Of a stretch of DNA of 52,081 nucleotides, positions 58 through 52,081 are shown piece after piece. The stretch comes from Butyrivibrio sp. (GTDB lineage Bacteria; Bacillota; Clostridia; Lachnospirales; Lachnospiraceae). Under the pieces are notes generated by a model that saw only the letters and a list, made by a program, of their open reading frames with translations, made no database searches and had not been told where the DNA came from. The translations under genes and the position numbers were made by a program. The stretch is from NCBI GenBank assembly GCA_017445665.1, contig JAFSTR010000169.1:1-52081 (forward strand). The letters run 5' to 3'. Every line of letters starts with the position of its first letter. The first letter of the stretch is position 1.

Positions 58-2121
58 ATGTTTAAAAGAATGAATCTGCTCTCCAAGATGCTTCTTGGAA
101 TAATACCCGCTGTTGCGCTTGCTCTTATTCTTGTAACGGCAGTCAGCGTAAACAGGTCATCCGGTGCTATTGAGACTCTGACAGCACAGAAGGCAGAAGA
201 GAGCATTGCAGCTAATGTAAGTGATATAAATGCAACACTCAAAACCCTCAGATCTACAGGAACGACTCTTGCAAGTACTGTAGGCGGAACATACAGTTCT
301 ACTGACCTTGATGTATATCAGGCAATTTTTAAAAAGACTATTCTATCCAACAGCGTTATTTCAGGAAGCGGAATATGGTTTAAACAGGGTGTATATAACC
401 ATATGACCTACGCCGGTCCATACTGGTACAGAGATGGAGATACGGTAGTTTATACAGATGAGTATTCCAATGCAGACTACAACTATTTTGAACAGGAATA
501 TTATGTAGTAACAACAGGTCTTTCAGAGGGACAGTCAAATATAACCAACCCATACTATGACCCTTCAAGCGGAAAGGTTATGTCTACCTGTTCGGCTCCG
601 ATCTACGATGTTGCAGGCTATTATTCCGGATGTATTACGGTTGATATTTATCTTGATGAGATCCAGAACATGATCTCTAATATCAGCCTGGGCAAAAACT
701 CAACACCTATGCTTCTTGACTCCGGCGGAACATACATTTATGACGTTGACGAGTCCAAGATCAGCGGATCTGTCAATATCGCCAATGATCCCAACGCTTC
801 CCTTGCCTCAGTTAGCTCTGTTGTAATGGGCAATGAGAGCGGTGTGACCACGTTTAAGCAGAACGGAGAAAACTACCTTCTCTTTTACGGAACAGTACCT
901 GATGTTGGTTGGAAGCTGTGTGTAACTCTTCAGGAAAAAGAGATGAATGCCAGCGTGACCGCTATCAGATCTTTCCTGATCATTATTTGCGTGATAGCCA
1001 TTATTGCGTGCATGGCAATTATTGTGGGCCTGGCCCTTTCCATTGTTAAGAGCGTTAATAATGTTAAGAAATTTGCCGGCAATCTGGCAAAGGGAGATTT
1101 TACCATCTCCAATATCAAAGCTAAGAGTTCTGATGAACTTGGCCAGATGTCTATGTCACTTAATAACATGTATGAGAGCAACAAATCCGTTATCTCTCAG
1201 GTTTCTGAAGAATCCGGCCGTATCGGAGAGGCTTCTTCAAACCTTGGAGATATGGCACAGCAGCTTACCAACGACTTCCAGGTTATCAGAAGCAATATGA
1301 CCGGAGTTAACGATGCCATGATGAGTGCATCAGCTGCTACTGAAGAGGTCAATGCCTCTATTGAGGAAGTAAACGCTTCTGTACAGATGCTGTCCGGACA
1401 GGCTGATGAGACTAGGATCCAGGCTGAGGAGATACAGAAAAAGGCTGCACAGATTGAGGAGAACTCCAGAAGAGCCAGTGAGAATGCCGCTCAAATCTCC
1501 TCTGAGAGAGAAAAAGATGTGGAAGAGGCCAATGAGCAGGCTGAAGTCGTTAAGGAGATCGGTTCTCTTGCAGATTCTATCGCAGAGATTGCAGACCAGA
1601 TCAACCTCCTGTCCCTCAACGCTTCCATCGAGGCTGCAAGAGCCGGAGAGCACGGAAAAGGTTTTGCTGTTGTTGCAGCTGAGATCAACAAGCTTGCAGG
1701 AGATACAGCGGATGCTGTTGGGCAGATACAGGGAACAGTCGACAATGTTCAGGGGGCCTTTGAACATCTGCTCAATGCTACCAATGAACTTCTCAGGTTC
1801 CTTAAGGAAACTGTTAAGACCGATTATGACAACTTCGTAAATATAGCTCAGGAATACGGCAACGATGCTGAATCCTTTGGACGTCAGTCGAGTTCTATTT
1901 CCGAGATGGTTGATACTATCCGTGGCGCTATGGGAGAAGTAAGTTCAGCTATCCAGAACATTACCGAGTCCACTCAGGACACAGCATCCAGAAGTTCGGA
2001 GATCACCGATACAGTTAACACCGTATCCGGAGTGGTTGATAACGTATCAGATATGTCTGTTCGTCAGCAGGAGATTTCTAAGTCGTTGTCTGACGTAGTA
2101 GGACAGTTCAAACTTAAATGA
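58..2121 (+). CDS. Methyl-accepting chemotaxis protein (TM-dCache-TM-HAMP-MCP signal)
   Basis: RBS AGGAGG upstream; two TM segments flanking a Cache-like periplasmic region (ITNPYYD); MCP hairpin [27 protein letters not shown]. Confidence 0.95.
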
Positions 2122-2178
2122 TTCTTTTGTTGATCAGTACTGTCAACTAACATATAAACAAATAAAAGGAGAGAATAC

Positions 2179-4248
2179 ATGAAAAGGATGAGTCTTCGCG
2201 TCAAGATGCTTCTGTGTATTTTGCCGGTCATGGCCATAGCCATGGTTCTGCTGACATATGTAGCAGCTAATCAGATCAGCAGCACTATGCAGTCCATGAA
2301 CACCGAAACAATGAATGAGACAGTTATTGCTAACGCAAACATTGTTGACGGTAAGCTAAAGATAATCAAAACCTCGTGTGTTGATATTGCCCAGATGATA
2401 TCAACATCTTATCAGTTTGTTACGATGGATAACTATAAGGGTACTATCACTAAGATTATCACTAGTAACGATTCTGTTCTCGGGTCCGGAATCTGGTTTG
2501 AACCCTATATGTTCGATAAGAACGAAATGTATGTAGGTCCATACTGGTATAAAGACGGTAGTGAAATTGTTGAGACCTATGATTACAGTAATGCTGAGTA
2601 TGACTACTTTAATCAGGAATACTATCTGAACGCGAAATCACTTTCAGAGGGTCAGGCAATGATCACAGATCCATACTATGATCCTACATCAGGTACGGTT
2701 ATGGCCAGCTGTTCAGCACCTATATATGACAACGGCACATATGTTGGCTGTGTAACAGTTGACATGTCATTGGATGACATAGACGAGATGATATCCGGAA
2801 TCAAAGTCGGAAAAACCGGATCGGCAATGCTTGTTGATTCATCAGGAACATATCTTTACTGCCTTGATTCTTCCAAGGTGGAATCAGGAGTTCACATCAC
2901 CGAAGACGATAATCCTGCACTTGCTGCAATGGGAACAGAGCTCATGTCAAAAGATTCCACATATCCTCAGATGGGTGCATTCATGGAGAATGGCAAAAAT
3001 ATACTTTTGACATATGTTACCATTCCTGATGTTAATTGGAAGCTTATACTTCGAATGGACATAGACGAGCTTGAAGAACCGGTACAGGCCGCAGGCGTTA
3101 AGCTTGCCGGTATTTGTATTGCGGCTCTTTTGGTTGGCGCGGCTATCATCTGGATATTTGTAATGAGTATCTCAAAGAGTATCAACAATGTTAAAGCCTT
3201 TGCCGGATCCCTTGCAAGCGGTGACTTTACTGTTGATAAGATCAGAAGTAAGAGCGGAGATGAGCTGGGACAGATGTCCGATTCCTTAAACAACATGTTT
3301 GAGAGCAACCGCGATGTTATCAGTAAGATTTCAGACGGATCGGAACGGGTATCCGAGACATCTTCAGGTCTTGCTACCATGGCCGGTGAACTTCAGGATC
3401 AGTTCAACAGCATCCAGGGCAATATCTCAGGCGTTAACGATGCCATGATGTCCTCCGGTGCAGCAACTGAGCAGGTTAATGCTTCTGTAGAAGAAGTCAA
3501 TGCGTCAGTTCATCAGCTGGCTGGCGAGACTGAAAAGACAAGTGCAGAGGCTGCCGATATCAAGGCGAGAGCAAGAGATATCGAAAAGAAATCAAAGCAG
3601 GCCTATGACAATGCGATCAGTATTGCAGAGCAGAGAGAAGCAGATCTTGCCGATGCCAATGAGAAGGCTAAGGTTGTGGATCAGATCGGAACTCTTGCCG
3701 ATACGATTGCTGAGATTGCCGACCAGATCAACCTTCTTTCACTCAATGCAAGTATTGAGGCTGCAAGAGCAGGAGATGCAGGTAAAGGTTTCGCAGTAGT
3801 TGCTTCAGAGATCAACAAGCTTGCAAGTTCAACATCGGAGGCAGTAGAGCAGATCAGAGATACCATCGACGGTGTACAGGAAGCTTTCGGAACACTTTCA
3901 AATTCTTCGGGAGAGCTGCTTGAATTCATTAAAGAGACAGTTACACCTGATTATGACAACTTCGTAAATGTAGCTAAACAGTACGGCGATGATGCTGATT
4001 CCTTCGGAGGATCTTCAGAGAACATTGCTCAGATGGTTGAGAACATCAGAGCATCCATGGAAGAGGTATCTAAGGCTATCCAGAATATCGCAGAATCTAC
4101 ACAGGATACTGCAGATCTCTCCAGCAGAGTAAATGACTCCGTAATGGCTGCTGCAGATGTTGTTTCCAATGTAAATGATATGTCCGGCAAACAGGAAGAG
4201 ATCGCCGGAACGCTGAAAGAGATTGTGGGTAAGTTCAAACTTAAGTGA
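2179..4248 (+). CDS. Methyl-accepting chemotaxis protein, tandem paralog of 58..2121
   Basis: RBS AAGGAG; same architecture; [27 protein letters not shown]; collinear similarity to upstream MCP, both ending in FKLK. Confidence 0.95.
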
Positions 4249-42091: not shown

Positions 42092-43018
42092 ATGATAATA
42101 AACACAGGACAGCGCACTGACATCCCGGCTTTTTACCCTAAGTGGCTCGCTAACAGGTTTAAAGAGGGAGAAGTGTGCGTCCGCAATCCATTTAATGAAG
42201 AAAGGGTCAGCAGGTATAAGCTTAGTCCCGACACTGTAGATGTGGTGGGATTTTGCTCTAAGAATCCTGCGCCCTTTTTTGAGTACATGGATGTGATAAA
42301 GGACTACGGGCAGTACTGGTTTGTGACAATAACGCCCTATGGCAGGGATATCGAGCCGGGAGTGCCTGATAAGCACAAGATTCTGGAGGATTTTAAGACG
42401 CTGTCCGGGATGGTTGGGATTAACAGTATAGGTTGGAGATATGACCCGATACTGGTTAATGACAGGTACACTGCAGAGTATCATCTAAGAGCCTTTGAGC
42501 AGATGGCAGCAGCGCTTGACGGGTTTACCCGTACTGTTGTCATCAGCTTTATTGATCTGTACGAGAAGGTCAAAAGAAATTTCCCGGAGGTCTGCGCAGT
42601 ATCAAGAGAGAACAAGCACTTTCTGGGAAAAGAGATCATAAAGATCGCAGCAGAACATGGCATGGTGGTTAAGCCCTGCGGAGAGGGGCAGTTCCTTTCA
42701 GAGTACGGTGCTGACTGCAGGGGCTGTATGACGATTGAGACTTACGAAAAGGCCATCGGAGCAAAGCTCATTGTTCCAAACAAAAAGCCTGCCAGAAAAG
42801 AGTGCGCCTGCTACCTTTCCGGCGACATCGGCGCCTACGACAGCTGCGGACATCTCTGCAGATACTGCTATGCCAATAACGACATCGAGGCAGTTAAGCG
42901 CAACATGAAGCTCCACGACCCGGATTCACCCTTCTTGATCGGCGGCTACCGCGAGGGAGACATTATCCACGATGTGGAGATGAAATCTTACATCGACAAT
43001 CAACTGAGCCTCTTCTGA
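42092..43018 (+). CDS. DUF1848 family protein
   Basis: RTDIPAFY, FCSKNP, WRYDPI, DIGAYDSCGHLCRYCYAN. Confidence 0.88.
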   Translation: MIINTGQRTDIPAFYPKWLANRFKEGEVCVRNPFNEERVSRYKLSPDTVDVVGFCSKNPAPFFEYMDVIKDYGQYWFVTITPYGRDIEPGVPDKHKILEDFKTLSGMVGINSIGWRYDPILVNDRYTAEYHLRAFEQMAAALDGFTRTVVISFIDLYEKVKRNFPEVCAVSRENKHFLGKEIIKIAAEHGMVVKPCGEGQFLSEYGADCRGCMTIETYEKAIGAKLIVPNKKPARKECACYLSGDIGAYDSCGHLCRYCYANNDIEAVKRNMKLHDPDSPFLIGGYREGDIIHDVEMKSYIDNQLSLF

Positions 43019-43022
43019 TTTT

Positions 43023-43089
43023 GGACCCTGGGGACGGAGTCAAGGGATCATTTTTTGAACCCCAGGGACGGAGTCAAGGGATCATTTTT
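43023..43089 (+). repeat. GGGACGGAGTCA hairpin repeat, tandem copies 1-2
   Basis: Core at 43031 and 43065 (34-bp period); each copy reads ..CCC-(T/C)(G/A)-GGGACGGAGTCA-AGGGATCATTTTT. Confidence 0.9.
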
Positions 43090-43099
43090 CAAGAATAAG

Positions 43100-43108
43100 T
43101 GGTATAAT
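43100..43108 (+). promoter_or_regulatory. Extended -10 promoter for the 59-aa ORF
   Basis: TGGTATAAT, about 43 nt upstream of ATG 43152. Confidence 0.65.
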
Positions 43109-43151
43109 ATTGATATAAATTAATATTTTTTCTTTCTGGGAGGGCAAGACT

Positions 43152-43331
43152 ATGGCAGATTTAGACAAGATCGAAACTCGTGTCACAAAAGAAGAGGAAA
43201 TATACGCTGACCCTGAGAAGGCTGCACTATTTGCAGATGATATCAGCGAAAAGGAGATAAAGCCTGAGATTTCAAAACAGTCGACGGTGGCTTTCACAGA
43301 ACGTGAGCGGCTGTGGGAAGGCATGAAATAA
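43152..43331 (+). CDS. Small acidic hypothetical protein, 59 aa (absent from the ORF track)
   Basis: MADLDKIETRVTKEEEIYADPEKAALFADDISEKEIKPEISKQSTVAFTERERLWEGMK; RBS GGGAGGG; own promoter and terminator. Confidence 0.75.
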   Translation: MADLDKIETRVTKEEEIYADPEKAALFADDISEKEIKPEISKQSTVAFTERERLWEGMK

Positions 43332-43362
43332 AGAGTAACAACTGAATATGGGATAGATCATC

Positions 43363-43392
43363 AAGGCTTCGGAGCGATCCGGAGCCTTTTTT
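43363..43392 (+). terminator. Intrinsic terminator
   Basis: AAGGCTTCGGA-GCGA-TCCGGAGCCTT followed by TTTT. Confidence 0.85.
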
Positions 43393-43403
43393 ATAAAAAT
43401 TTG

Positions 43404-43441
43404 ATAACAGGTATTAACAATTAACAGATGTTAACCGATAA
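43404..43441 (+). promoter_or_regulatory. Candidate BlaI-family operator(s) overlapping the blaI-like promoter
   Basis: Palindrome TTAACAGATGTTAA (43421-43434) plus degenerate ATAACAGGTATTAA (43404-43417); adjacent ACCGATAA/GATAAT -10-like sequence. Confidence 0.7.
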
Positions 43442-43471
43442 TAATATTGAAAAAGAAAAAGGGGGATTATT

Positions 43472-43867
43472 ATGCCAAAAGAAGAGATGCTTCCAAGTGA
43501 AAGTGAATGGATGATCATGGAGACGCTGTGGCGATGTGGGCATGATCTTACCTCTGCGGAGATAGCTGATGCACTGCCAAAATCTTCCAGGATGAACCAG
43601 AGGATGGTCAGGGTTCTTATAAACAGATTATGCAAAAAGGGTAAGCTTAAGTTTACTGTCGATCCCGATGATGCCAGGGTCTATCACTATACGGCTGCCA
43701 GAGGGAGAGATGAGTGCAGGAGAGCAAAGAGCAGCGCTTTTGTGGAGAATTACTTTGAAGGCAACAGACTCTCAGCAGCATTTACTTTGCTGGAGGGCGG
43801 AGGGCTCTCGGCGGAACAGATAAAAGAGCTTGAGGACATCCTCAAAGAAGCCAGGAAGAATATATAA
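43472..43867 (+). CDS. BlaI/MecI/CopY family transcriptional repressor
   Basis: SESEWMIMETLW...VRVLINRLCKKG...LSAEQIKELEDIL. Confidence 0.92.
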   Translation: MPKEEMLPSESEWMIMETLWRCGHDLTSAEIADALPKSSRMNQRMVRVLINRLCKKGKLKFTVDPDDARVYHYTAARGRDECRRAKSSAFVENYFEGNRLSAAFTLLEGGGLSAEQIKELEDILKEARKNI

Positions 43868-43876
43868 GACTCATGG

Positions 43877-45130
43877 ATGAGCGAGGTAGCAGTTATGCAG
43901 GGAATGCCAATGTTTTTTGAATTCGTATGCGTTTATTATTCGACCATACTTGGTTTTTGCGCTATCATATCATTTTTTGTAATGGGAATTATCATGGCCT
44001 TAAGGAGCAGTGTGTTTGCCGGGCATGTCTTTGGCAGAGCTGCTTTGTGGTGCATGCTGATTCCTGTTTTGTTTTGCGGGAAACTAAGAGCCTATTTTGA
44101 GACAAGAATTGGTGTGCATACCATATTCAGGTGGTATAGCTTTTTGTCAGAGCATAGATGGATGTGCACCCTGTATATGGCGGGAATAATAGTATTTGCA
44201 GCACTGCTTATATACAGGCGCGTAAGACTAAAGCGCCTTATCAGGTTCATGCCCGATTCGGAAGATCACTTATCCGTGTATCCTGTCAAAGTATTTTCGG
44301 GTAAAACATCGTCTTTCTGCCTGGGATGCTTTAAGCCGGTTATAGTTGTGCCGGACATTTTACAAGGTGCAGAAAGAGGCGTTGTGATAAAGCATGAAGA
44401 GACGCATATAAGGCTCGGACATCTGTGGATATTACTGGTTTACGATATACTTCGGACTCTCCTCTGGCCCAATATCCTTCTACATTTAGGTGTTAGGTAT
44501 CTGAAAAGAGATCTCGAAGATATTTGTGATCTGGTGACGATACAGAGAAACAACATCGATACGGGATTTTACGGGCGCGTAATTCTCGACTGTGCAAAAG
44601 ACATGTCTGATAGCGGGAGAAAGATTGGATATGAAAGCGGAATGTCTTTTACCACGAATGATAATTACAGGGTCTTGAGAAAGAGACTTGAGCTGATAGT
44701 AAGGGAAAGGGCATATAACTCAAAAGCTGTGCTGGCCGGGGCAGTAATCCTTGTGATGGTGGTTTGTGTTGCGATCGGACTTATAAAGGCTAATTCCTAT
44801 AAGAGAACCAATGACATGGGACAGGTCTGTTCCATGTGCTATCCAGGTGATCTGGACTCTATATTTGTAGATGATGACCAGACTATTGTGACATATGTTG
44901 ACGACGAGTATATATCAATAAACGCCCAAGCCCTTCTTGAACAGTACCCTGAAGCAAAAAGCGGCGATGGATGGTTCTATTTCTCAGTGGGCGGCTACTA
45001 CAAAATCCCGGGAATCGGTGGCGGTGGTGGCTGGGGAGAACTTGATGCAAAAGACATAAATGGCAGTGTTATCATGATCCCCAATCACACAGATATTGAC
45101 TTCTTCGAGCGCCTCATCATGTGGCTATGA
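43877..45130 (+). CDS. BlaR1-like M56 metallopeptidase signal transducer without a penicillin-binding domain
   Basis: TM helices; SFCLGCFKPVIVVP; HEETH zinc motif; LWPN; DLEDICD; LRKRL; short extracellular C-terminal domain. Confidence 0.88.
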   Translation: MSEVAVMQGMPMFFEFVCVYYSTILGFCAIISFFVMGIIMALRSSVFAGHVFGRAALWCMLIPVLFCGKLRAYFETRIGVHTIFRWYSFLSEHRWMCTLYMAGIIVFAALLIYRRVRLKRLIRFMPDSEDHLSVYPVKVFSGKTSSFCLGCFKPVIVVPDILQGAERGVVIKHEETHIRLGHLWILLVYDILRTLLWPNILLHLGVRYLKRDLEDICDLVTIQRNNIDTGFYGRVILDCAKDMSDSGRKIGYESGMSFTTNDNYRVLRKRLELIVRERAYNSKAVLAGAVILVMVVCVAIGLIKANSYKRTNDMGQVCSMCYPGDLDSIFVDDDQTIVTYVDDEYISINAQALLEQYPEAKSGDGWFYFSVGGYYKIPGIGGGGGWGELDAKDINGSVIMIPNHTDIDFFERLIMWL

Positions 45131-45194
45131 CCCCCGGGGACGGAGTCAGGGGATCATTTATGAGCCCTAGGGACGGAGTCAAGGGCTCATTTTT
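45127..45194 (+). repeat. GGGACGGAGTCA hairpin repeat, tandem copies 3-4
   Basis: Core at 45137 and 45170; copy 3 contains the TGA stop of the M56 gene; copy 4 is a perfect ATGAGCCCT/AGGGCTCAT stem. Confidence 0.9.
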
Positions 45195-45220
45195 GAAGCC
45201 AGGGAACAGGAGGTGGTTAT

Positions 45221-46072
45221 GTGAACGGATGGGAAGTCACTGTGAGTGGCAATACAACTCATTACAGAAAAAGACTCTATGATGCATACGGAAATCATGT
45301 CGGAACCATCGGAATCTGCAGACCTACCAAGCAGACCGGTAAGAAAAAGAAGCCGGCACTGTACAGTTTTAAGCAGGTTTCATCCCAGGTTTTGCAGGCC
45401 AAGACCTCTACAAAAGCCATGCAGGTTTCTAACAGTATCAGGGCGAAGATAGGTCTTTTGAAAAAACAGCTTAAGAACGGAGATGTGGATGAAGAAGAGG
45501 TACTGAGGGCAATCCTTCATGCGGAGATGGTTCAAAGAGCTTGTGACAAGAAAAAGAAGAACCTGAAAATGGAAGAGACTGCAGAAAGAAATATTGAGGC
45601 AGAAGAGGAAATGCCTGTAGAAACCGAGGAAGCGCCTGATGAAGCTGCCTCGGAAGAGGAGGTAAAGGAGCTTGAGCAGGCCGAGTTTGAAGCCCTTATG
45701 GAAAAGTTGGAGCTCAGCGCTGATGAGATGATGGAAATGGCGGAAGAGACGGCAACGCTTGACGAGGAGCTGGATGAAATGGCAGAGGCTCTCTCCGGAT
45801 CCATGACGCCGGAAGATCTTGAGCAGCTCAAGGTCAAGCACAGATCGGATGAAGCCAGAGACATATTGAAGGCAGATCTAAAGTATTTGAAGGCACTGTT
45901 TGACCGGCTCCAGTCGGAAAAAGAAAATGCCGGAAAAAGCTCTTTTGCGGGAGCAGGGTCATATGACAGCGGAGTGATGCTATCGCTTGGAGGTGTGGAC
46001 ATGACAGTTATGGATGCAGGAACGACAAGCGCACTGGCAGAAACAGGCGGGACATTTGATGTAGAGGTGTGA
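45221..46072 (+). CDS. Hypothetical protein (basic N-terminus, acidic coiled coil, C-terminal GGTFDVEV)
   Basis: GTG start with AGGAGGT RBS; 283-aa ORF with no recognised domain. Confidence 0.8.
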   Translation: MNGWEVTVSGNTTHYRKRLYDAYGNHVGTIGICRPTKQTGKKKKPALYSFKQVSSQVLQAKTSTKAMQVSNSIRAKIGLLKKQLKNGDVDEEEVLRAILHAEMVQRACDKKKKNLKMEETAERNIEAEEEMPVETEEAPDEAASEEEVKELEQAEFEALMEKLELSADEMMEMAEETATLDEELDEMAEALSGSMTPEDLEQLKVKHRSDEARDILKADLKYLKALFDRLQSEKENAGKSSFAGAGSYDSGVMLSLGGVDMTVMDAGTTSALAETGGTFDVEV

Positions 46073-46092
46073 GATATTTTTTTAGAGAATAG

Positions 46093-46108
46093 ATTAACAG
46101 CTGTTAAC
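46093..46108. promoter_or_regulatory. Second copy of the candidate BlaI-family operator
   Basis: ATTAACAGCTGTTAAC, 15/16 identical to 43420-43435; TTAACAGCTGTTAA is a perfect palindrome. Confidence 0.7.
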
Positions 46109-46113
46109 GAATT

Positions 46114-46147
46114 GTGAGCCCTGGGGACGGAGTCAGTGGCTCATTTT
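46114..46147 (+). repeat. GGGACGGAGTCA hairpin repeat, copy 5
   Basis: GTGAGCCCTGGGGACGGAGTCAGTGGCTCATTTT. Confidence 0.9.
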
Positions 46148-46173
46148 GTGAAAGCGAAAAGGAGGTAACATTT

Positions 46174-46830
46174 ATGAGCATAGGAATTAACACAAATTAT
46201 GGAACAAATGGTTATGTAGGCTTAAATGGCAGCGCAGAGCCGGCTTGGATCAAGGATGATGATAAGGAAAAAGAGAAAGCGTCTTCCGCAGCACAGCCCG
46301 GAGTTATCTATGAAAAGCAGGATGCCAATGCGAGTGCAGCAAAGAGCGAGAAGGACGATGAAAAGGCTATCTACAAGAAATCCAAAGAAGACAGGGCAGC
46401 CATAGTCCAGCAGCTCAAGGCTGACGAGGAGCAGCAGAGGAACAATCTGATCTCCATTGTACAAAAAACGCTCAAGGGTCAGGTCGGAGCTTATGGAACA
46501 GCGAAGGGTGATGATTTTTGGAGACAGCTTGCCGGTGGCAACTTCAAGGTGGATGCTGCTACAAGGGCTCAGGCGCAAAAAGATATTTCGGAAGACGGCT
46601 ATTATGGCGTGAAGCAGACTTCCCAGAGGCTCTTTGATTTCGCATCAGCCCTTGCCGGGGACGACGTGGACAAGATGAAGGAGATGCAGAAGGCTATGGA
46701 GAAGGGATTTAAGCAGGCGACCAAGACCTGGGGACGTGAACTTCCAGCTATATGTAAAGAGACTATGAATGCAGCTAATAAGCTGTTTGAGGACTACTAC
46801 AGCTCAAAAGAGAAAGGGACTGAAGTATGA
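46174..46830 (+). CDS. Conserved hypothetical protein (DUF5610-like C-terminal helical domain)
   Basis: ATG 46174 after AAGGAGGT (the track start 46114 lies inside the repeat); ISEDGYYGVKQTSQRLFDFA...KGFKQA...LP motif; family name from recall. Confidence 0.75.
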   Translation: MSIGINTNYGTNGYVGLNGSAEPAWIKDDDKEKEKASSAAQPGVIYEKQDANASAAKSEKDDEKAIYKKSKEDRAAIVQQLKADEEQQRNNLISIVQKTLKGQVGAYGTAKGDDFWRQLAGGNFKVDAATRAQAQKDISEDGYYGVKQTSQRLFDFASALAGDDVDKMKEMQKAMEKGFKQATKTWGRELPAICKETMNAANKLFEDYYSSKEKGTEV

Positions 46831-47405
46831 AGATCGCAGGAATAGGCGGGACATATTCAGCGGCCGGTGCAGAGCAAACCCGCAAAAAGCCGGGTACTGT
46901 CAAAGAGTATTCTAACTACCTTACTCAGAAATTTCCCTGCCTTACTCCGGGACCAAATTCTGCTGTTTCGGTCACAAGTGGACTTCTAAAAAAGGCTATG
47001 GCAGACGAGAAGACCGGCGCATGGCTGGAAAGAGAACTGGCGAAAGCCCCGGATTACATCAAAGCAGCTCAGGAGTCCGCAAAAGCACATGGGGCTACAC
47101 TTAAGTCTGTAACTATCGAATTTGGTGAAGAGTACAGCACTATGTGCACACTTACTGTAACGGATGGCGGAGGAACAGAGCCTGAGATAGACAAATGGCT
47201 TGAAAGGGTTAAAGAGAAAAAAGCTGAGCAGAAGAAAGCGGAAAAGAGGCTTGAGAAGGAACAAAAAGCCTTGGAAGTGCAAGAAAGTATGCATTCCATG
47301 GAGATACATGGAAAAGACCTGAAGGACCTGACCAAAAAGTTCTCTGAAAAACTATCTGAACAAACGCAATTCAATCCATATGGGAATTTTGACGCTAGAG
47401 CCTGA
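46827..47405 (+). CDS. Hypothetical protein (DUF6033-like; C-terminal YGNFDARA)
   Basis: ATGA overlap with the upstream gene; EYSNYLTQKF...VSVTSGLLKKAMAD; Lys/Glu coiled coil; family name tentative. Confidence 0.7.
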   Translation: MKIAGIGGTYSAAGAEQTRKKPGTVKEYSNYLTQKFPCLTPGPNSAVSVTSGLLKKAMADEKTGAWLERELAKAPDYIKAAQESAKAHGATLKSVTIEFGEEYSTMCTLTVTDGGGTEPEIDKWLERVKEKKAEQKKAEKRLEKEQKALEVQESMHSMEIHGKDLKDLTKKFSEKLSEQTQFNPYGNFDARA

Positions 47406-47410
47406 GCTGA

Positions 47411-47444
47411 CTAATTATGACATAAATGAATCCATTGATGACAT
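47411..47444 (+). promoter_or_regulatory. Candidate LytTR-binding direct repeat
   Basis: CTAATTATGACAT / CCATTGATGACAT with 21-bp period; matches the repeats at 49688 and 51965. Confidence 0.7.
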
Positions 47445-47449
47445 TTCTA

Positions 47450-47477
47450 TAAGTTGCTAAAGGTTATATGCCGATAT
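47450..47477 (+). promoter_or_regulatory. Sigma-28 (SigD/FliA)-type promoter
   Basis: TAAG-N16-GCCGATAT versus consensus TAAA-N15/16-GCCGATAT. Confidence 0.75.
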
Positions 47478-47517
47478 AACAGAAAAGGAGTTGTGTCGTT
47501 CATGTACACGGAGGTAG

Positions 47518-48420
47518 ATGATTATGACCGGAATCAATATTACTTCGCTGGATAGGCAGGTAAAAGACATTGGTCAGGAAATTTACGCTGCGAAACAGCA
47601 GCGAGATGAGAAGCTGGCTAAGTCTTCGCCTGAAAATAAAGATGGTGGTTTGCAGAAAGCCATCCATGAAAAACTCAGTGATAGATCAAACGTGGCTTTT
47701 GGTGACACGGCAGCTACGCTTTCTATCTCTGCGCTTGGAGCAGAAAAACTGGAGAAAGTCAGAGATTCCTGGAATAACCATCCGGTAAGTTCACTGTACA
47801 GAACAGAGATTCCGATCAACAAGAATGCCGAAGGTGCGTACAAGATAGGCGGAGTTTCTTTTGCCGAAGAAGAATTTACTGCAGCCAGAGAACTTGTGAC
47901 GGATACAAGCAGTCAACTCAAAACCGGATACCTGAGCTACAGGGATTATGCCAAGATGGAAGTGACGCAGAAGGTTGTGGATGATCGTGCTTCTAAAGGC
48001 TTTAGTGCAGAACAGGCCAAGGTGATCAGCCGGGCTATGAAGGACTACAACAGCAGTCTGGTAGAGTGGCAGAACGAAATGCTTTCGGGCAGAACTACAC
48101 GTGTGAACAATGATCCTGAGTCAGGAAGATACTTTGGAGTCGAGGTTCTGGTGCCCAGAAGCGTTACAGAATCAGGAATACCAAGATATGCCAGCACGGA
48201 CATTGCTACGGACAGGGAGCTGATAAAAACGCTACGTGACAGTATAGGGGCAGTTGATATTACTGGCAAAAACGCTGCTTCTGAGATTAAAGCTCTTTAT
48301 CAGGACATTATGAAGCCCGTATATGCTGCGCAGTACCCATTCCAGAGGGAATCTGATATAAATGACGCTTTGGATAAAGACGTAAAAGAGCTTATGGCAC
48401 TTATAGATGTTGAGAAGTGA
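47518..48420 (+). CDS. Hypothetical protein (start may be 47524)
   Basis: GGAGG RBS; 300-aa ORF; ATLSISALG motif near the N-terminus; no recognised domain. Confidence 0.8.
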   Translation: MIMTGINITSLDRQVKDIGQEIYAAKQQRDEKLAKSSPENKDGGLQKAIHEKLSDRSNVAFGDTAATLSISALGAEKLEKVRDSWNNHPVSSLYRTEIPINKNAEGAYKIGGVSFAEEEFTAARELVTDTSSQLKTGYLSYRDYAKMEVTQKVVDDRASKGFSAEQAKVISRAMKDYNSSLVEWQNEMLSGRTTRVNNDPESGRYFGVEVLVPRSVTESGIPRYASTDIATDRELIKTLRDSIGAVDITGKNAASEIKALYQDIMKPVYAAQYPFQRESDINDALDKDVKELMALIDVEK

Positions 48421-48439
48421 TATGAGATTTGCTCATGAA

Positions 48440-48508
48440 AAAATGAGCCCCTGACTCCGTCCCTAGGGATCAAAAATGAGCCATGGGGACGGAGTCATGG
48501 GTTCATTT
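48440..48508. repeat. GGGACGGAGTCA hairpin repeat, inverted pair copies 6(-) and 7(+)
   Basis: TGACTCCGTCCC at 48452 and GGGACGGAGTCA at 48486 (back-to-back); ends immediately before the GGAGGT RBS. Confidence 0.9.
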
Positions 48509-48523
48509 CGGAGGTAACAGATT

Positions 48524-49549
48524 ATGAGGATACAGCAGAACCCCTTTCAGGGAAATGATAATACACAGATAATTTCAGGCGCTGCAAATGCTCAGAATAA
48601 GAATGGTAACATGAATTCGATTTCCGGTGCTAACCTTAAGGGGGAGAGCCTTATAGCTCAGCGTCAGGGGCTTGCAAGGAAACAGGCACTTAAGGTTGTC
48701 TCCGATGCTTTCGGCGGCGAGAAGAAGCTCGATGCTCAGATGCAGGGGATCAAGGATGAGATCAAGCGCCTGCAGGACGTGATAAATGAGAAGCGCACTG
48801 ATACCAGGGATAATGATGCTAAGTTAAAAGAGCTTCAGGAGCAATACGGGATCGACCCGGACAGCGAAGAGAATAAGAATCTGGAGCAGCTTGCCCTTAA
48901 AATGAATTACTCCAAAGACGGTTTATCCGATGAGGAGATGGAAAAGCTATCCGAGTATCAGCAACAGGCTCTTTACTATGTGGCAAAAAATCAGCAGAAT
49001 GCGCTTGATATCGACCAAGCCAAGGCTCAGCAGGCCGGAAATGTCCAGGGATATGCAGATATGAAAAGAGAGCGTGCAAAATCCCAGGATATGCTCAAAG
49101 CACAGGATGCAGCTGAGGAGATCATGGAGGCTTCGAACGATGAGACGGTAGCTCTTTTGACTCAGGAAATGATTGAGCACGTTGATGAAGAGCAGAAGGA
49201 GCGCGAAGAAGAGGCAAAAGAGGCTGCGGAAAAGAAAAAAGAAGAGAAGAAGGAAGAGGCGAAGAAGCTTGAAAAAGAAGCTATGCAGCAGGAGATGATC
49301 GAGAACATCAAGGAACATGCTGCCGAGGGTCAGAGGACAAGTGCCGATGCAAAAAGAGCTATCGCCAGGCGTGAGCGAGCTGAGGCCGAACGGATGGATG
49401 CAGAAGGCGCACAGAAGACCATTATTTCCGAAGGTGCTTCCATGGAGGATACACAGGATGCAGTCAATTCCGAGATTACCAATATTCTTAACAAGCTGAG
49501 TCTTCTTTCAAATGACGTAAAGGGCAGTGCTATAGATAATCAGATATGA
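48524..49549 (+). CDS. Hypothetical coiled-coil protein (N-terminal MRIQQN, C-terminal KGSAIDNQI)
   Basis: GGAGGT RBS; 341 aa; Asn/Gln-rich N-terminus, Glu/Lys/Ala-rich helices. Confidence 0.82.
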   Translation: MRIQQNPFQGNDNTQIISGAANAQNKNGNMNSISGANLKGESLIAQRQGLARKQALKVVSDAFGGEKKLDAQMQGIKDEIKRLQDVINEKRTDTRDNDAKLKELQEQYGIDPDSEENKNLEQLALKMNYSKDGLSDEEMEKLSEYQQQALYYVAKNQQNALDIDQAKAQQAGNVQGYADMKRERAKSQDMLKAQDAAEEIMEASNDETVALLTQEMIEHVDEEQKEREEEAKEAAEKKKEEKKEEAKKLEKEAMQQEMIENIKEHAAEGQRTSADAKRAIARRERAEAERMDAEGAQKTIISEGASMEDTQDAVNSEITNILNKLSLLSNDVKGSAIDNQI

Positions 49550-49624
49550 GCCCCAGGGACGGAGTCAGGGGACCATTTTCAGAAAATTCTGAAAATGAAC
49601 CACTGACTCCGTCCCTAGGGACCA
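49546..49624. repeat. GGGACGGAGTCA hairpin repeat, inverted pair copies 8(+) and 9(-), forming a long palindrome
   Basis: Core at 49556 and reverse complement at 49604, joined by TTTTCAGAA-AA-TTCTGAAAA; copy 8 contains the TGA stop of the upstream gene. Confidence 0.9.
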
Positions 49625-49635
49625 AAATCAAGGAT

Positions 49636-49680
49636 GCGCATTATTTCAATGGAGTGAAAACATTGGAATGATGCGCTTTT
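49636..49680 (+). terminator. Probable intrinsic terminator
   Basis: GCGCATTATTTCAATG...CATTGGAATGATGCGC followed by TTTT. Confidence 0.65.
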
Positions 49681-49687
49681 AAATTGT

Positions 49688-49756
49688 CCATTCGTAACAT
49701 GAAAATGGCTATTCATGACATGGATAAAGCCTACGCAAATGTTCTGATGCTATGAT
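49688..49756 (+). promoter_or_regulatory. Candidate LytTR autoregulatory direct repeat + extended -10
   Basis: CCATTCGTAACAT / CTATTCATGACAT with 21-bp period; TGcTATGAT at 49748-49756. Confidence 0.7.
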
Positions 49757-49785
49757 TTATGCATAAACAGACAAGAGGATGAAAT

Positions 49786-50547
49786 ATGAATAAGTACAGT
49801 ATAGCAATTTGTGATGATGAAGAGCCAGTGAGATGTCTTTTACGCGAATGGACAAGGACAAGTACACCCGGGGCAGAGGTTAGGGAATACTCAGGTGGCA
49901 AAGAGCTGCTAAGGGATATCGATGAAGGCCTAAAGGTTGATGTGCTGTTTCTTGATATTGCCCTGGAGGAGAGTGATGGCTTTGAGACAGCAAAAGAGCT
50001 GGAAAAGAAAATAGAGGCAACCGGAAAGAGTATGCGCGCTTCAAGGCCTCTTATCATTTTTGTTACCGGAATCCCCGACAGGATGGGAGATGCGTTCGAG
50101 GTAAAGGCGTTTGATTATCTGATAAAGCCGGTTTCAAAAGATATATTTGAGAGTGGTCTGCACCGCGCAATTGAGGAACTAAAACGACTTGATGCACAGC
50201 TTATATGCGAAACTTCATATCACAACAAAGAGGATTTCATTACAGTACAGATTGGAAAAGAGTCGGTGACTTTGAGGGTAAAAGACATTCTCTATGTTGA
50301 AAGCTCCGGCAGAAAAGCAGTAGTGCGTATGAAGGATAAACGCTATGAAATCTACAGACAGATGTCCGGACTTGAAGAGGAACTTGGAAAAGAATTTTTC
50401 AGAATCCACAGGGGATATCTGGTTAATATGGAGCATATTAAAGGGTACTCGAGGTCTGAGGTTCAGATAGATAACGGGGATCTTCTTATCATATCCAAAT
50501 ATAAATACCAGGAATTTGTAAAAGCATATATGGATTACATATCCTAA
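49786..50547 (+). CDS. LytTR family response regulator (AgrA-like)
   Basis: IAICDDE...LFLDI...IIFVT...YLIKP; ILYVES...FFRIHRGYLVN. Confidence 0.95.
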   Translation: MNKYSIAICDDEEPVRCLLREWTRTSTPGAEVREYSGGKELLRDIDEGLKVDVLFLDIALEESDGFETAKELEKKIEATGKSMRASRPLIIFVTGIPDRMGDAFEVKAFDYLIKPVSKDIFESGLHRAIEELKRLDAQLICETSYHNKEDFITVQIGKESVTLRVKDILYVESSGRKAVVRMKDKRYEIYRQMSGLEEELGKEFFRIHRGYLVNMEHIKGYSRSEVQIDNGDLLIISKYKYQEFVKAYMDYIS

Positions 50548-50561
50548 AAAGCGGAGGGGTT

Positions 50562-51992
50562 ATGACCGAAGAACAGATAAGGATAGCTCAGCAATTATAC
50601 GGAATGATCATGATTCTTATCAGGGGAGCGTTTCTGGGATTGTTTCTGGATCTTTTTCTAGAAAAAGAGATATTGAACAGAGCAAAGATAATTATGATAT
50701 CAGCAGTCGTGACTGTTATCGGGCTAATTCTCTTTGCTATACCGTTTTCCACAAGAGGACTGTACAGCCTCATCGGACTTATCGTCATAGCCATAGTCTT
50801 TTGGCTGATCAATCCCAAAGTGCTGCCTCACTCGATATTTGTTTTCTTTTTGTGGAACAATGTCTTTTACGTATGGTATCTTGCAAACTTCGCAATCTTC
50901 AATGAAATTACAGATAAGGTCACAGGAGCAATTGATTATTCAAAGGAAGGTGCCATAGAGCGTTTGTGGCTTTGGATGTTTGCGCTTATAGTGGCGCAGA
51001 TTGTCTTTATGGCACTCACACTTTTTGGCGAATATCTGGTAGTAAGAAAACTCTGTCAAAAGAAATATGACATGTCCTGGACGGAAGCTCTTTATCTGTC
51101 AGTTTATTCGGCGGTCTCGTACATTATCTGTTACATGATTGCGGATGTAATGGTGGTTCCCTTGGAAAAAGAGGTATTCCTTTTAATGGACGAAAAGAGA
51201 GAAATGGTATTTACGCTTCCTCTGCTTGCACTGCTATTATTCATAGGCGAGATATCTGCCATTGCTACCTGGCAGAGGTATAGACGGCTCAAGGAAGAAG
51301 AACTGCGGCTTCAGGAAGAGCTTAAGCAGCAGGAATTTATCAGGAAGAAGATAGAGTACACAGAAAAATATCATGATCGCATCAGAACGCTCAGGCATGA
51401 TATGGCCGGAAAACTCATGATACTAAAGAGCTTTATTGAAAATGGTAAGTATGAAGATGCTGAACAGTTTCTGGGAGAAATGGACATAGAGCTCAGCAGG
51501 AGTAGTATACATTTCACTACAGGGAATCCGGTTACCGATGTTGTGATAAATGAGGCAGCAGCCCAGGCGGACAGTTTAAGATGTAAGTTTCAGGCGGACT
51601 TTTCTTTTCCCATAGAAAGCGGTATTGGCGCAATAGATGTTGGGATCATATTGAATAATCTGTTGGACAATGCACTGGAAGCTGTGGCAGTAATCCCGGA
51701 AAACGAAAGGTACATAAAACTTACGGGAGAGTTTAAGGAGAACTTTTTCCTGATAAGAGCCGAGAACTCTTTTGACGGAATGATGAAAAGAGATGGGAAT
51801 GGCAATATAGTGAGCAGGAAAAAACATCAAAGTGACGGAGAGCTTCATGGAATTGGGCTAAAGAGTGTGATGAGCATTGCGGATAAATATCTTGGGACAA
51901 TGGATATCAGTTCAGAGAATAAGGTATTCAAGGTTAGAGTTATGCTCCAAAGCACTGAAGATGACTATTCACTACATCAAACTGTCCGTTGA
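50562..51992 (+). CDS. Membrane GHKL sensor histidine kinase (AgrC/VirS-like)
   Basis: About 7 TM helices; LRHDM; TGNPVTD; NLLDNALEA; HGIGLKSV. Confidence 0.92.
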   Translation: MTEEQIRIAQQLYGMIMILIRGAFLGLFLDLFLEKEILNRAKIIMISAVVTVIGLILFAIPFSTRGLYSLIGLIVIAIVFWLINPKVLPHSIFVFFLWNNVFYVWYLANFAIFNEITDKVTGAIDYSKEGAIERLWLWMFALIVAQIVFMALTLFGEYLVVRKLCQKKYDMSWTEALYLSVYSAVSYIICYMIADVMVVPLEKEVFLLMDEKREMVFTLPLLALLLFIGEISAIATWQRYRRLKEEELRLQEELKQQEFIRKKIEYTEKYHDRIRTLRHDMAGKLMILKSFIENGKYEDAEQFLGEMDIELSRSSIHFTTGNPVTDVVINEAAAQADSLRCKFQADFSFPIESGIGAIDVGIILNNLLDNALEAVAVIPENERYIKLTGEFKENFFLIRAENSFDGMMKRDGNGNIVSRKKHQSDGELHGIGLKSVMSIADKYLGTMDISSENKVFKVRVMLQSTEDDYSLHQTVR

Positions 51993-52031
51993 TGCATTAG
52001 CTATTCACCCGGATATCTTCATAGTCGATAC
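51965..52031 (+). promoter_or_regulatory. Candidate LytTR direct repeat + weak sigma-28-type promoter for the next gene
   Basis: CTATTCACTACAT / CCGTTGATGCATT (21-bp period), then TTCA-N16-GTCGATAC with geometry identical to 47411-47477. Confidence 0.6.
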
Positions 52032-52076
52032 CTGTAATGTAACAGTAAAGCGCTGAAATCGTGAGGTAAACAGAAT

Positions 52077-52081
52077 ATGAA
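52077..52081 (+). CDS. Probable start of a gene truncated by the window edge
   Basis: GAGGT RBS at 52063, ATG at 52077, downstream of a candidate promoter. Confidence 0.45.

Follow-up and report, generated by a model that had tools for sequence, protein, structure and literature searches.

A sensor-flanked cluster of uncharacterised proteins in Butyrivibrio, linked to the flagellum and likely exported through it

The stretch of DNA analysed here (the window; 52,081 nucleotides of Butyrivibrio sp., contig C92 of a 1.99-Mb assembly that is 63% complete) carries at 43472-51992 nine consecutive genes on the same strand, encoding a BlaI-type repressor, an M56 membrane protease, five proteins without recognisable domain (cargo A to E), a REC-LytTR response regulator and a GHKL histidine kinase. 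Our best explanation, to which we assign a probability of roughly 0.6, is that these genes form a flagellum-linked cluster in which the two sensors likely gate predicted sigma28 promoters, and that the encoded proteins are likely handled as clients by the export apparatus of the flagellum, the majority of them likely leaving the cell through it. This explanation builds on the observed gene content, conserved sites, a strict co-occurrence with FlhA and a C-terminal tail with its distribution; in short, sensors would likely switch on, and the flagellum likely send out, a set of proteins found only in flagellated gut and rumen Lachnospiraceae. Overall, the original prediction made from the sequence of the window is borne out for the flagellar link, the promoters, the operators, the variable cargo and the N-termini, but not for the role of intergenic hairpin repeats.

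All genes and, unless noted otherwise, all other features described below lie on the + strand. The cluster opens with blaI (43472..43867), encoding a winged-helix repressor of the BlaI/MecI/CopY family (PF03965, Penicillinase_R, 70.4 bits) that scores far below the NCBIfam BlaI cut-offs, and M56 (43877..45130), encoding a BlaR1-like membrane protease sensor (PF05569, Peptidase_M56, 59.5 bits). It continues with the genes for cargo A (45221..46072, acidic), B (46174..46830), C (46827..47405, DUF6033-like), D (47524..48420; its open reading frame (ORF) opens at 47518, but comparison with homologs points to the second ATG, at 47524, as the start) and E (48524..49549), and closes with those for the REC-LytTR response regulator (49786..50547; PF00072, Response_reg, and PF04397, LytTR) and the multi-pass membrane histidine kinase (50562..51992; PF14501, HATPase_c_5, 82.5 bits, six hydrophobic segments). 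The Pfam search agrees with the proposal that five co-oriented genes, at the positions predicted, are flanked by a BlaI/M56 and a LytTR/GHKL pair and have no recognisable domain, as A, B, D and E came near the cut-off of no family and C scored 24.8 bits against DUF6033 (cut-off 25). The predicted lack of a signal peptide or transmembrane helix likewise agrees with a hydropathy check (not a signal-peptide predictor), in which no 19-residue window of A to E exceeded 0.87 and no hydrophobic N-terminus was seen. Homologs that share 90-93% identity with B carry the name Butyrivibrio, and sequence searches brought up close matches from Bacillota only. Four bases into a further gene (start 52077) the contig ends; the counterpart of this gene in a related genome (G005) is a 328-aa cargo of the unnamed family F12. 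No GC anomaly was found in the cargo region and no integrase in the window.

The cluster genes almost certainly belong to the flagellar regulon. We analysed their co-occurrence with FlhA across the Lachnospiraceae, taking a single genome for each genus, with a completeness of at least 92%; of these 220 genomes, FlhA was present in 116 and absent from 104. Homologs of A (28/116), B (94/116) and E (44/116) were found in FlhA-positive genomes and in 0/104 of those lacking FlhA; the same held for DUF6033, the family to which C weakly belongs (59/116 vs 0/104, a count for the family and not for C itself), and for D (3/116 vs 0/104, not significant). The flagellar link first proposed is thereby upheld, as no exception occurred among the 220 genomes and every cargo family tested was missing from the non-flagellated ones, whereas DUF1848, the family of the gene directly upstream of the island, served as a control and showed no such bias (57/116 vs 44/104, p=0.34). 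Cargo B is the island paralog of a near-universal gene of flagellated Lachnospiraceae: 35 of 36 genus members carry B, the core copy lying next to an ispE-like gene and often accompanied by a second copy in an island, and a canonical sigma28 promoter precedes the core paralog. Cargo E belongs to a large unnamed family (850 clusters at 50% identity, E<=1e-10), and a sigma28-like site precedes 11 of 30 of its homologs compared to 37 of 1572 background ORFs. The assembly itself contains FlhA and two flagellin-domain genes.

Fold and profile comparisons gave few leads on the cargo. The model of E (predicted local distance difference test score, pLDDT, 77) shows a long helical hairpin whose ends are of low confidence, for which Foldseek returned no match at E<=0.001 and the best VIA match (Z 9.5) was to generic helical hairpins and uninformative; the fold of B, computed from 11 sequences, reached a pLDDT of 49.5 and was not used. 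Sequence searches of the PDB gave no match for the alignments A1 and A2 and one low-complexity match for A6. The profiles of A and E are unrelated (probability 1%), DUF5610 is a weak lead only for B, and for A the ESM Atlas gave 0.85 to clusters bearing DUF6033 and FlxA, again a lead only.

The main sigma28-type promoter is one that the original prediction lacked. Predicted to drive a blaI-M56-A-B-C operon, it lies before blaI at 43414..43441 (TTAAC-N15-ACCGATAA), and a BlaI-type palindrome (TTAACAGATGTTAA, 43421-43434, plus an upstream half-degenerate copy) sits between its -35 and -10 elements. This promoter form is kept at 16 of 18 blaI loci and was found in 13 of 22 loci of a named set (which partly overlaps the first) compared to 2 of 1572 background ORFs. 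A sigma70-like match (10 of 12 in the window) overlaps it; the -10 of this match varies between loci, whereas CCGATA is conserved. The palindrome TTAACAnnTGTTAA occurs in perfect form at only two places in the 1.99 Mb, 43421 and 46094, both within the island, the second (46094..46107) being located upstream of B with no sigma28 -10 adjoining. Once duplicates and matches with fewer than 100 upstream bases had been dropped, this box upstream of B was present at 11 of 21 loci with the same M56 clade vs 2 of 53 without it. At three distant loci (L203, L208, L213) both arms of the promoter box have changed to TTTAC..GTAAA, with a similar change at L196, while TTAA and CCGATA are unchanged; the variant is nearer to TACA-nn-TGTA, the BlaI/MecI box. 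The register of the blaI promoter is that of the flagellin, flaG, flgL and flgM promoters in relatives (TAAA/TAAG/TTAA-N15-[GAT]xCGATA), a late-flagellar form which fits the Butyrivibrio sigma28 consensus given in passages of PMC3720852.

The M56 protein retains an intact HEETH in the alignment and has three hydrophobic stretches. Its C-terminal domain of ~110 residues belongs to no known family, carries a conserved KxPGxGGG and matched neither a penicillin-binding domain nor any other Pfam entry; a search for it among shorter proteins gave 9 matches and no family. Against blaR1_generic the protein reached 31 bits (cut-off 400), aligning to positions 169-368 of a profile of 585. In the window and at related loci no beta-lactamase or PBP2a gene is adjacent, the neighbours being cargo genes. 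With neither a penicillin-binding domain nor a beta-lactamase, the pair is not a beta-lactam sensor. The M56 clade is found in 7 of 116 FlhA-positive and 0 of 104 FlhA-negative genomes, and in all seven it adjoins cargo-type genes.

A second set of sites points to the LytTR regulator. Before D, at 47410..47477, two LytTR-type direct repeats (47410-47423 and 47431-47444, 21-bp period) are followed by a sigma28-type site (TAAG-N16-GCCGATAT, 47450-47477) that has a weak -35 and is conserved in relatives; the sigma-28 promoter originally placed before 47518 is accordingly present, with a likely start of D at 47524. Further repeats lie before the lytTR gene itself (49687..49721, conserved), which predicts autoregulation, and a degenerate set at 51964..52081, below the matrix threshold, stands with a sigma28-type -10 (GTCGATAC, 52024-52031) ahead of the cargo gene starting at 52077, the same sequence being present in G005. 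Using a LytTR matrix built from 17 sites in other genomes, we obtained three strong tandem matches in the assembly, at 49687 (the best genome-wide), at 47410 (third-best) and on another contig, C19. Since the last follows a separate, unrelated LytTR-GHKL pair, the motif is supported as a LytTR box, yet it is not unique to the island regulator. That region (C19:3463-9119) holds a like direct repeat before a gene which, judging from the appearance of its sequence, probably encodes a glycoside hydrolase. Weak -35 elements behind LytTR repeats are as expected of activator-dependent promoters, and one sigma28 promoter of this kind is known from E. coli, that of aer, which depends on CRP (PMC2859248). 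The original prediction had placed candidate operators of both regulators inside the cargo cluster, and these were found, TTAACAnnTGTTAA at 46094 and the LytTR repeats at 47410, both conserved in relatives; the BlaI and LytTR boxes are very probably functional operators.

The island is conserved in layout and variable in content. Among 14 island loci from the genus, 11 carry blaI-M56 and 11 the LytTR-GHKL pair (some contigs end early), and the cargo around an A-B core vary, including FliD_C-like proteins (3 of the 4 tested exceed the Pfam threshold), DUF6033 and the unnamed families F8, F9 and F12; flanking genes also differ between genomes. The layout recurs in other genera (L048, L049, L067, L138-L143, L146, L147, L150), as the synteny comparison suggested with the original prediction confirmed, with the cargo shuffled, and the proposed variable cargo set holds both between related islands and between genera. 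Across 80 named loci around island-type B, spanning Butyrivibrio, Pseudobutyrivibrio, Roseburia, Lachnospira and others, 47 have a regulator match and another cargo family within 8 kb, a count that runs high because weak response-regulator matches are included. Related islands also hold FlxA-like (PF14282) and DUF3879 cargo; FlxA is a FliA-regulon protein dispensable for flagella, and FlxA, DUF6033, DUF3879 and FliD_C-like proteins have so far been isolated families rather than interchangeable members of a sensor-gated set. Gene C is missing at the same position in G005 (L028) and G035 (L029), leaving a clean junction. A sigma28-like site of their own is present at 9 of 19 loci with A homologs (a family-level sample).

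Several of these loci show further rearrangements or neighbours. A large internal deletion at L029:5366-5700 (G035) breaks the frame of A and leaves blaI, M56, B, D and E intact, and L048:10216-11214 (G147) is a natural fusion of an F8-type N-terminus with cargo B, in an island that adjoins flagellin, a FliK paralog and a small FlhB-like gene. In G005 a 1028-aa protein with a TIR domain and a beta-propeller is encoded a few kb upstream of the island (L028:1082-4168).

We next consider whether the cargo leave the cell. For residues 2-21 we determined a polar-minus-charged index, which was 0.31 for the cargo (n=17 representatives), 0.29 for exported flagellar proteins (n=14), 0.02 for cytoplasmic flagellar proteins (n=18) and 0.00 for the proteome (cargo vs cytoplasmic p=6e-5; cargo vs exported p=0.76). 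The export-like N-termini of the original prediction thus reappear for the cargo as a group and are weaker for A, C and D. Most cargo are probably exported via the flagellar apparatus.

A feature absent from the original prediction is a C-terminal tail, hydrophobic-Asp-x-x-x (phi-D-x-x-x), with which A (GGTFDVEV), C (GNFDARA), D (LIDVEK) and E (KGSAIDNQI) end. The tail terminates 10 of the 17 cargo representatives, and only 29 of 1572 ORFs of the genome, equal to shifted positions. It is kept in homologs of A (32/35) and E (29/30; 134/150 in a wider set), in F8 (10/10), F9 (9/9) and DUF6033 (7/8), in half of the FliD_C-like family (11/22), and in a C homolog in L143 (GSIDIKA). In four relatives it also ends both FliK paralogs (8/8), FlaG (5/5), FlgN (4/4) and a FlgN-like gene product encoded after fliS (3/4); it was not flagged on flagellin, FliD, FlgK, FlgL, FlgE, FlgD, FlgB, FlgC, FliE, FlgM or FliS, most of these labels being ones that we take from gene order. 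The cargo thereby resemble FlaG and FliK of relatives, but differ in that the tail is here borne by many unrelated, non-structural families.

Published work offers candidate partners. In passages of PMC11536152, the last six residues of C. jejuni FlaG are modelled as a beta-strand on the FlhA sequence IRIRDNLRL, mutation of which gave longer filaments and less FlaG secretion; the FlhA of the present assembly has IRLRDNIQL at 395-403. The last five residues of FliK matter for the specificity switch according to part of a preprint (bioRxiv 10.1101/2023.11.25.568686) and are proposed to contact FlhB in passages of PMC13344023. The tail is likely a mark of export-gate clients that do not polymerise, with FlhA or FlhB as its possible partner, and we rate docking on the gate at about even odds. 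A co-fold of FlhA 345-686 and the 40 C-terminal residues of E scored 0.00 in both runs, without control folds, and is evidence neither way. Genome-wide, one ORF had both the tail and a sigma28 site (p=0.44), most tail genes lying within operons of an assembly without many flagellar genes.

Other tailed genes were noted in passing. Each of the four relatives (L100-L107) has two FliK-domain genes, both tailed, one of them in the fla/che operon; at L048, the single locus inspected, the second has a small FlhB-like gene as its neighbour. A 126-aa gene without Pfam match just after fliA in G005 (L246:849-1229) carries the tail, as do stand-alone ORFs of the assembly at C6:7675-8418 (DUF6033), C180:6247-6687 and C189 near 21547, two of which look YaaR-like and YjfB-like, presumably.

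An alternative that keeps the same regulation is that the cargo stay in the cytoplasm as gate chaperones or competitors whose tail would serve, in response to a signal, to tune flagellar number, filament length or substrate order. The tail on FlgN and the FlgN-like protein, both cytoplasmic chaperones, fits such a role, and so does the helical hairpin of E, a shape common to many type III secretion accessory proteins; FlaG, moreover, works at the gate as an antagonist of FliS-flagellin docking (passages of PMC11536152). However, the N-termini of the cargo group with exported proteins, whereas the index of the FlgN pair is -0.20 compared to the cargo mean of 0.31. The FliD_C-like cargo suggest extracellular action, and a single gate-tuning job would hardly account for over ten families that can replace one another. 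We consider this alternative unlikely, although it is the strongest competitor of export.

Several findings weigh against regulated export. The N-terminal index was chosen after the sequences had been seen, its 17 representatives include several that are distantly related to DUF6033 and are not independent, and the values for A, C and D of the window reach only the 76th percentile. The co-occurrence p-values are overstated because the genomes are kin, and no FliA match over the cut-off was found in the 63%-complete assembly. Cargo B, the most widespread, has no tail, and that of D is not conserved (3 of 6 close homologs). As FlgN carries the tail too, it marks gate clients rather than export, and since passages of PMC12445086 report FedB and CiaI secretion to be unaffected in the FlhA strand mutant, export in general does not require that site. 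Furthermore, 16 of the 19 A-homolog loci have no island-type sensor cluster and A stands isolated; clear sensor islands are seen only at L048 and L049, and L066 has LytTR and extracytoplasmic function (ECF) sigma genes nearby. With most A homologs standing alone, sensor gating would be an add-on to genes already regulon-like, and no fixed pairing of sensor and cargo was seen among the named loci.

Returning to the preferred explanation, the promoter sequences suggest a model in which sigma28 would hold transcription until the hook-basal body is complete. By analogy with BlaR1/BlaI, BlaI bound to the palindrome between -35 and -10 would repress the blaI-M56-A-B-C promoter, until an outside signal acting on the M56 sensor led to cleavage of BlaI and derepression. 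The GHKL kinase would phosphorylate the LytTR regulator, which may then bind the repeats of 21-bp period that lie immediately upstream of weak -35 elements, activating its own operon as well as D-E and the downstream cargo. The cargo, with their polar, charge-poor N-termini, would be passed to the export apparatus, the phi-D-x-x-x tail of many of them likely docking on FlhA or FlhB. Outside the cell they may have cap-like or filament-associated roles, or act in signalling or in interaction with host or neighbours.

Compatible with export is the further idea that exported cargo, or fragments of them, are the signals read by the neighbouring sensors, giving an Agr-like self-amplifying loop with the flagellum as exporter. 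Both sensors have predicted autoregulatory boxes, the multi-pass GHKL kinase is of a type that senses peptides, and the M56 clade is confined to FlhA-positive genomes with 7 of 7 family-level matches adjoining cargo-type genes. Among window ORFs of at least 60 aa, with the contig ending after the kinase, there is no peptide precursor and no processing, export or dedicated exporter gene. Yet the cargo beside a given sensor type vary widely, cargo genes often lack a sensor altogether, and in a quick tree (41 of 46 rows from islands) the island kinases fall in several lineages, with labels not clustered beyond shuffles; we regard such a loop as improbable, more so than a cytoplasmic role. The broadest version of our reading, a signal-gated accessory secretome in which sensors license sigma28 promoters of swappable cassettes for more than ten unrelated families, a portable five-residue tag shared with FliK, FlaG and FlgN acts as a docking code common to those clients of the flagellar gate that do not polymerise, and some exported cargo are the sensors' own signals, is put forward tentatively, as a speculation that is less likely than not.

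The original prediction had also assigned a role to hairpin repeats of the repetitive extragenic palindromic (REP) type. Two tandem copies lie at 43018..43093 (not part of the system) and two at 45124..45198, a single copy at 46111..46152, all on the + strand, and inverted pairs, without strand, at 48438..48514 (hairpin z = -8.2) and 49543..49630 (z = -10.9). The claim of nine repeats at most gene junctions was correct as to number and place, with nine copies at five sites, and with four of the six gene boundaries that surround the five hypothetical genes marked in this way, but the repeats are not specific to the island: their 12-base core has 44 exact copies in the genome, 35 of them outside the island, and 41 of the 44 lie outside ORFs of at least 120 aa in a genome that is 84% coding. 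Among 36 genus members the core is abundant in few (G005 105, G035 43, G011 40, G004 29, G003 13, G016 12), while 19 have none. A RAYT-like Y1 HuH transposase gene of G005 (L157) has inverted pairs on both sides; this transposase was not found in the 63%-complete assembly of the window. Being short and imperfect palindromes outside genes, arranged as tandem or inverted doublets, spread genome-wide and flanking a Y1 HuH transposase (G005), they show no essential difference from REP/RAYT elements. Ten of 14 related island loci have no copy and differ as much in cargo. At L033 and L037-L041, from genomes that lack the GGGACGGAGTCA element, other recurring intergenic palindromes (e.g. around GCTAGTCGCACTTAGCGAGC) occur at like junctions.

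The repeats are ordinary, lineage-specific, genome-wide REP-type elements and passengers of the island, as they occur throughout the genome, are missing from 10 of 14 islands and were not at the junction where C was lost. We rejected them as a shuffling engine, the role originally suggested, because most related islands lack copies, the loss of C was repeat-free and the family is confined to few lineages. That the cluster is a chance assembly shuffled by these hairpins, read by the housekeeping sigma factor and with sensors and cargo functionally unlinked, is very improbable, for although flanking genes vary, a sigma70-like site overlaps the blaI promoter and nine repeats lie within the island, the layout recurs across genera without repeats, CCGATA and not the sigma70 -10 is conserved, the boxes track their regulators and C was lost with no repeat at its ends.

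Outside the cluster, the window begins at 58-4248 with two tandem genes that look, from their sequence, like methyl-accepting chemotaxis genes. Just upstream of blaI, a 59-aa acidic ORF without Pfam match (43152-43331) has its own ribosome-binding site and an extended -10-like TGGTATAAT upstream, and is followed by a terminator-like hairpin (43363-43388), so that it is apparently separate from the cluster. In four RNA runs, which held small word shares only, contigs thinly cover parts of the island and its neighbours and are uninformative on expression or starts.

By analogy, the cluster would work like the Campylobacter Fed/Cia proteins placed under BlaR1/BlaI-like and Agr-type LytTR regulators. 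In Campylobacter, flagellum-secreted non-flagellar proteins are under sigma28 control. Proteins of the FedB, CiaI, FspA and FlaC type of C. jejuni are not needed for motility and leave through the type III secretion system (T3SS) of the flagellum, as stated in passages of PMC12445086 and PMC5223770. The present cargo resemble the Fed/Cia/FspA proteins, as far as sequence tells, in being limited to flagellated genomes, in their sigma28-type promoters and in having no hydrophobic signal or helix; unlike these, they are clustered, interchangeable and under dedicated membrane sensors in Gram-positive-type commensals, and their export is predicted only. With BlaR1/BlaI (MecR1/MecI) the first pair shares a winged-helix repressor, an M56 protease bearing HExxH and a palindromic operator that overlaps the promoter of the pair itself, but it has no penicillin-binding domain or beta-lactamase, its promoter is sigma28-type and its predicted targets are flagellar clients. 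With Agr/Com-type LytTR-GHKL systems the second pair shares a REC-LytTR regulator, a multi-pass GHKL kinase, 21-bp-period direct repeats and predicted autoregulation; unlike them, its targets include sigma28-type promoters and no peptide precursor or processing gene accompanies it among the window ORFs surveyed. In the literature that we searched, subscription journals and supplements not being covered, we found no account of such clusters, of sigma28 promoters under BlaI or LytTR, or of the tail as a motif common to different proteins.

Two open questions, the recognition by the flagellar T3SS of clients other than its building blocks and the function of the last five residues of FliK, become directly testable through the shared tail. 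If our explanation is true, a pathway would be assigned to several large unnamed families in abundant bacteria of the rumen and the human gut, including Butyrivibrio, Pseudobutyrivibrio, Roseburia and Lachnospira, commensals whose flagella would thereby serve as a regulated route of protein export.

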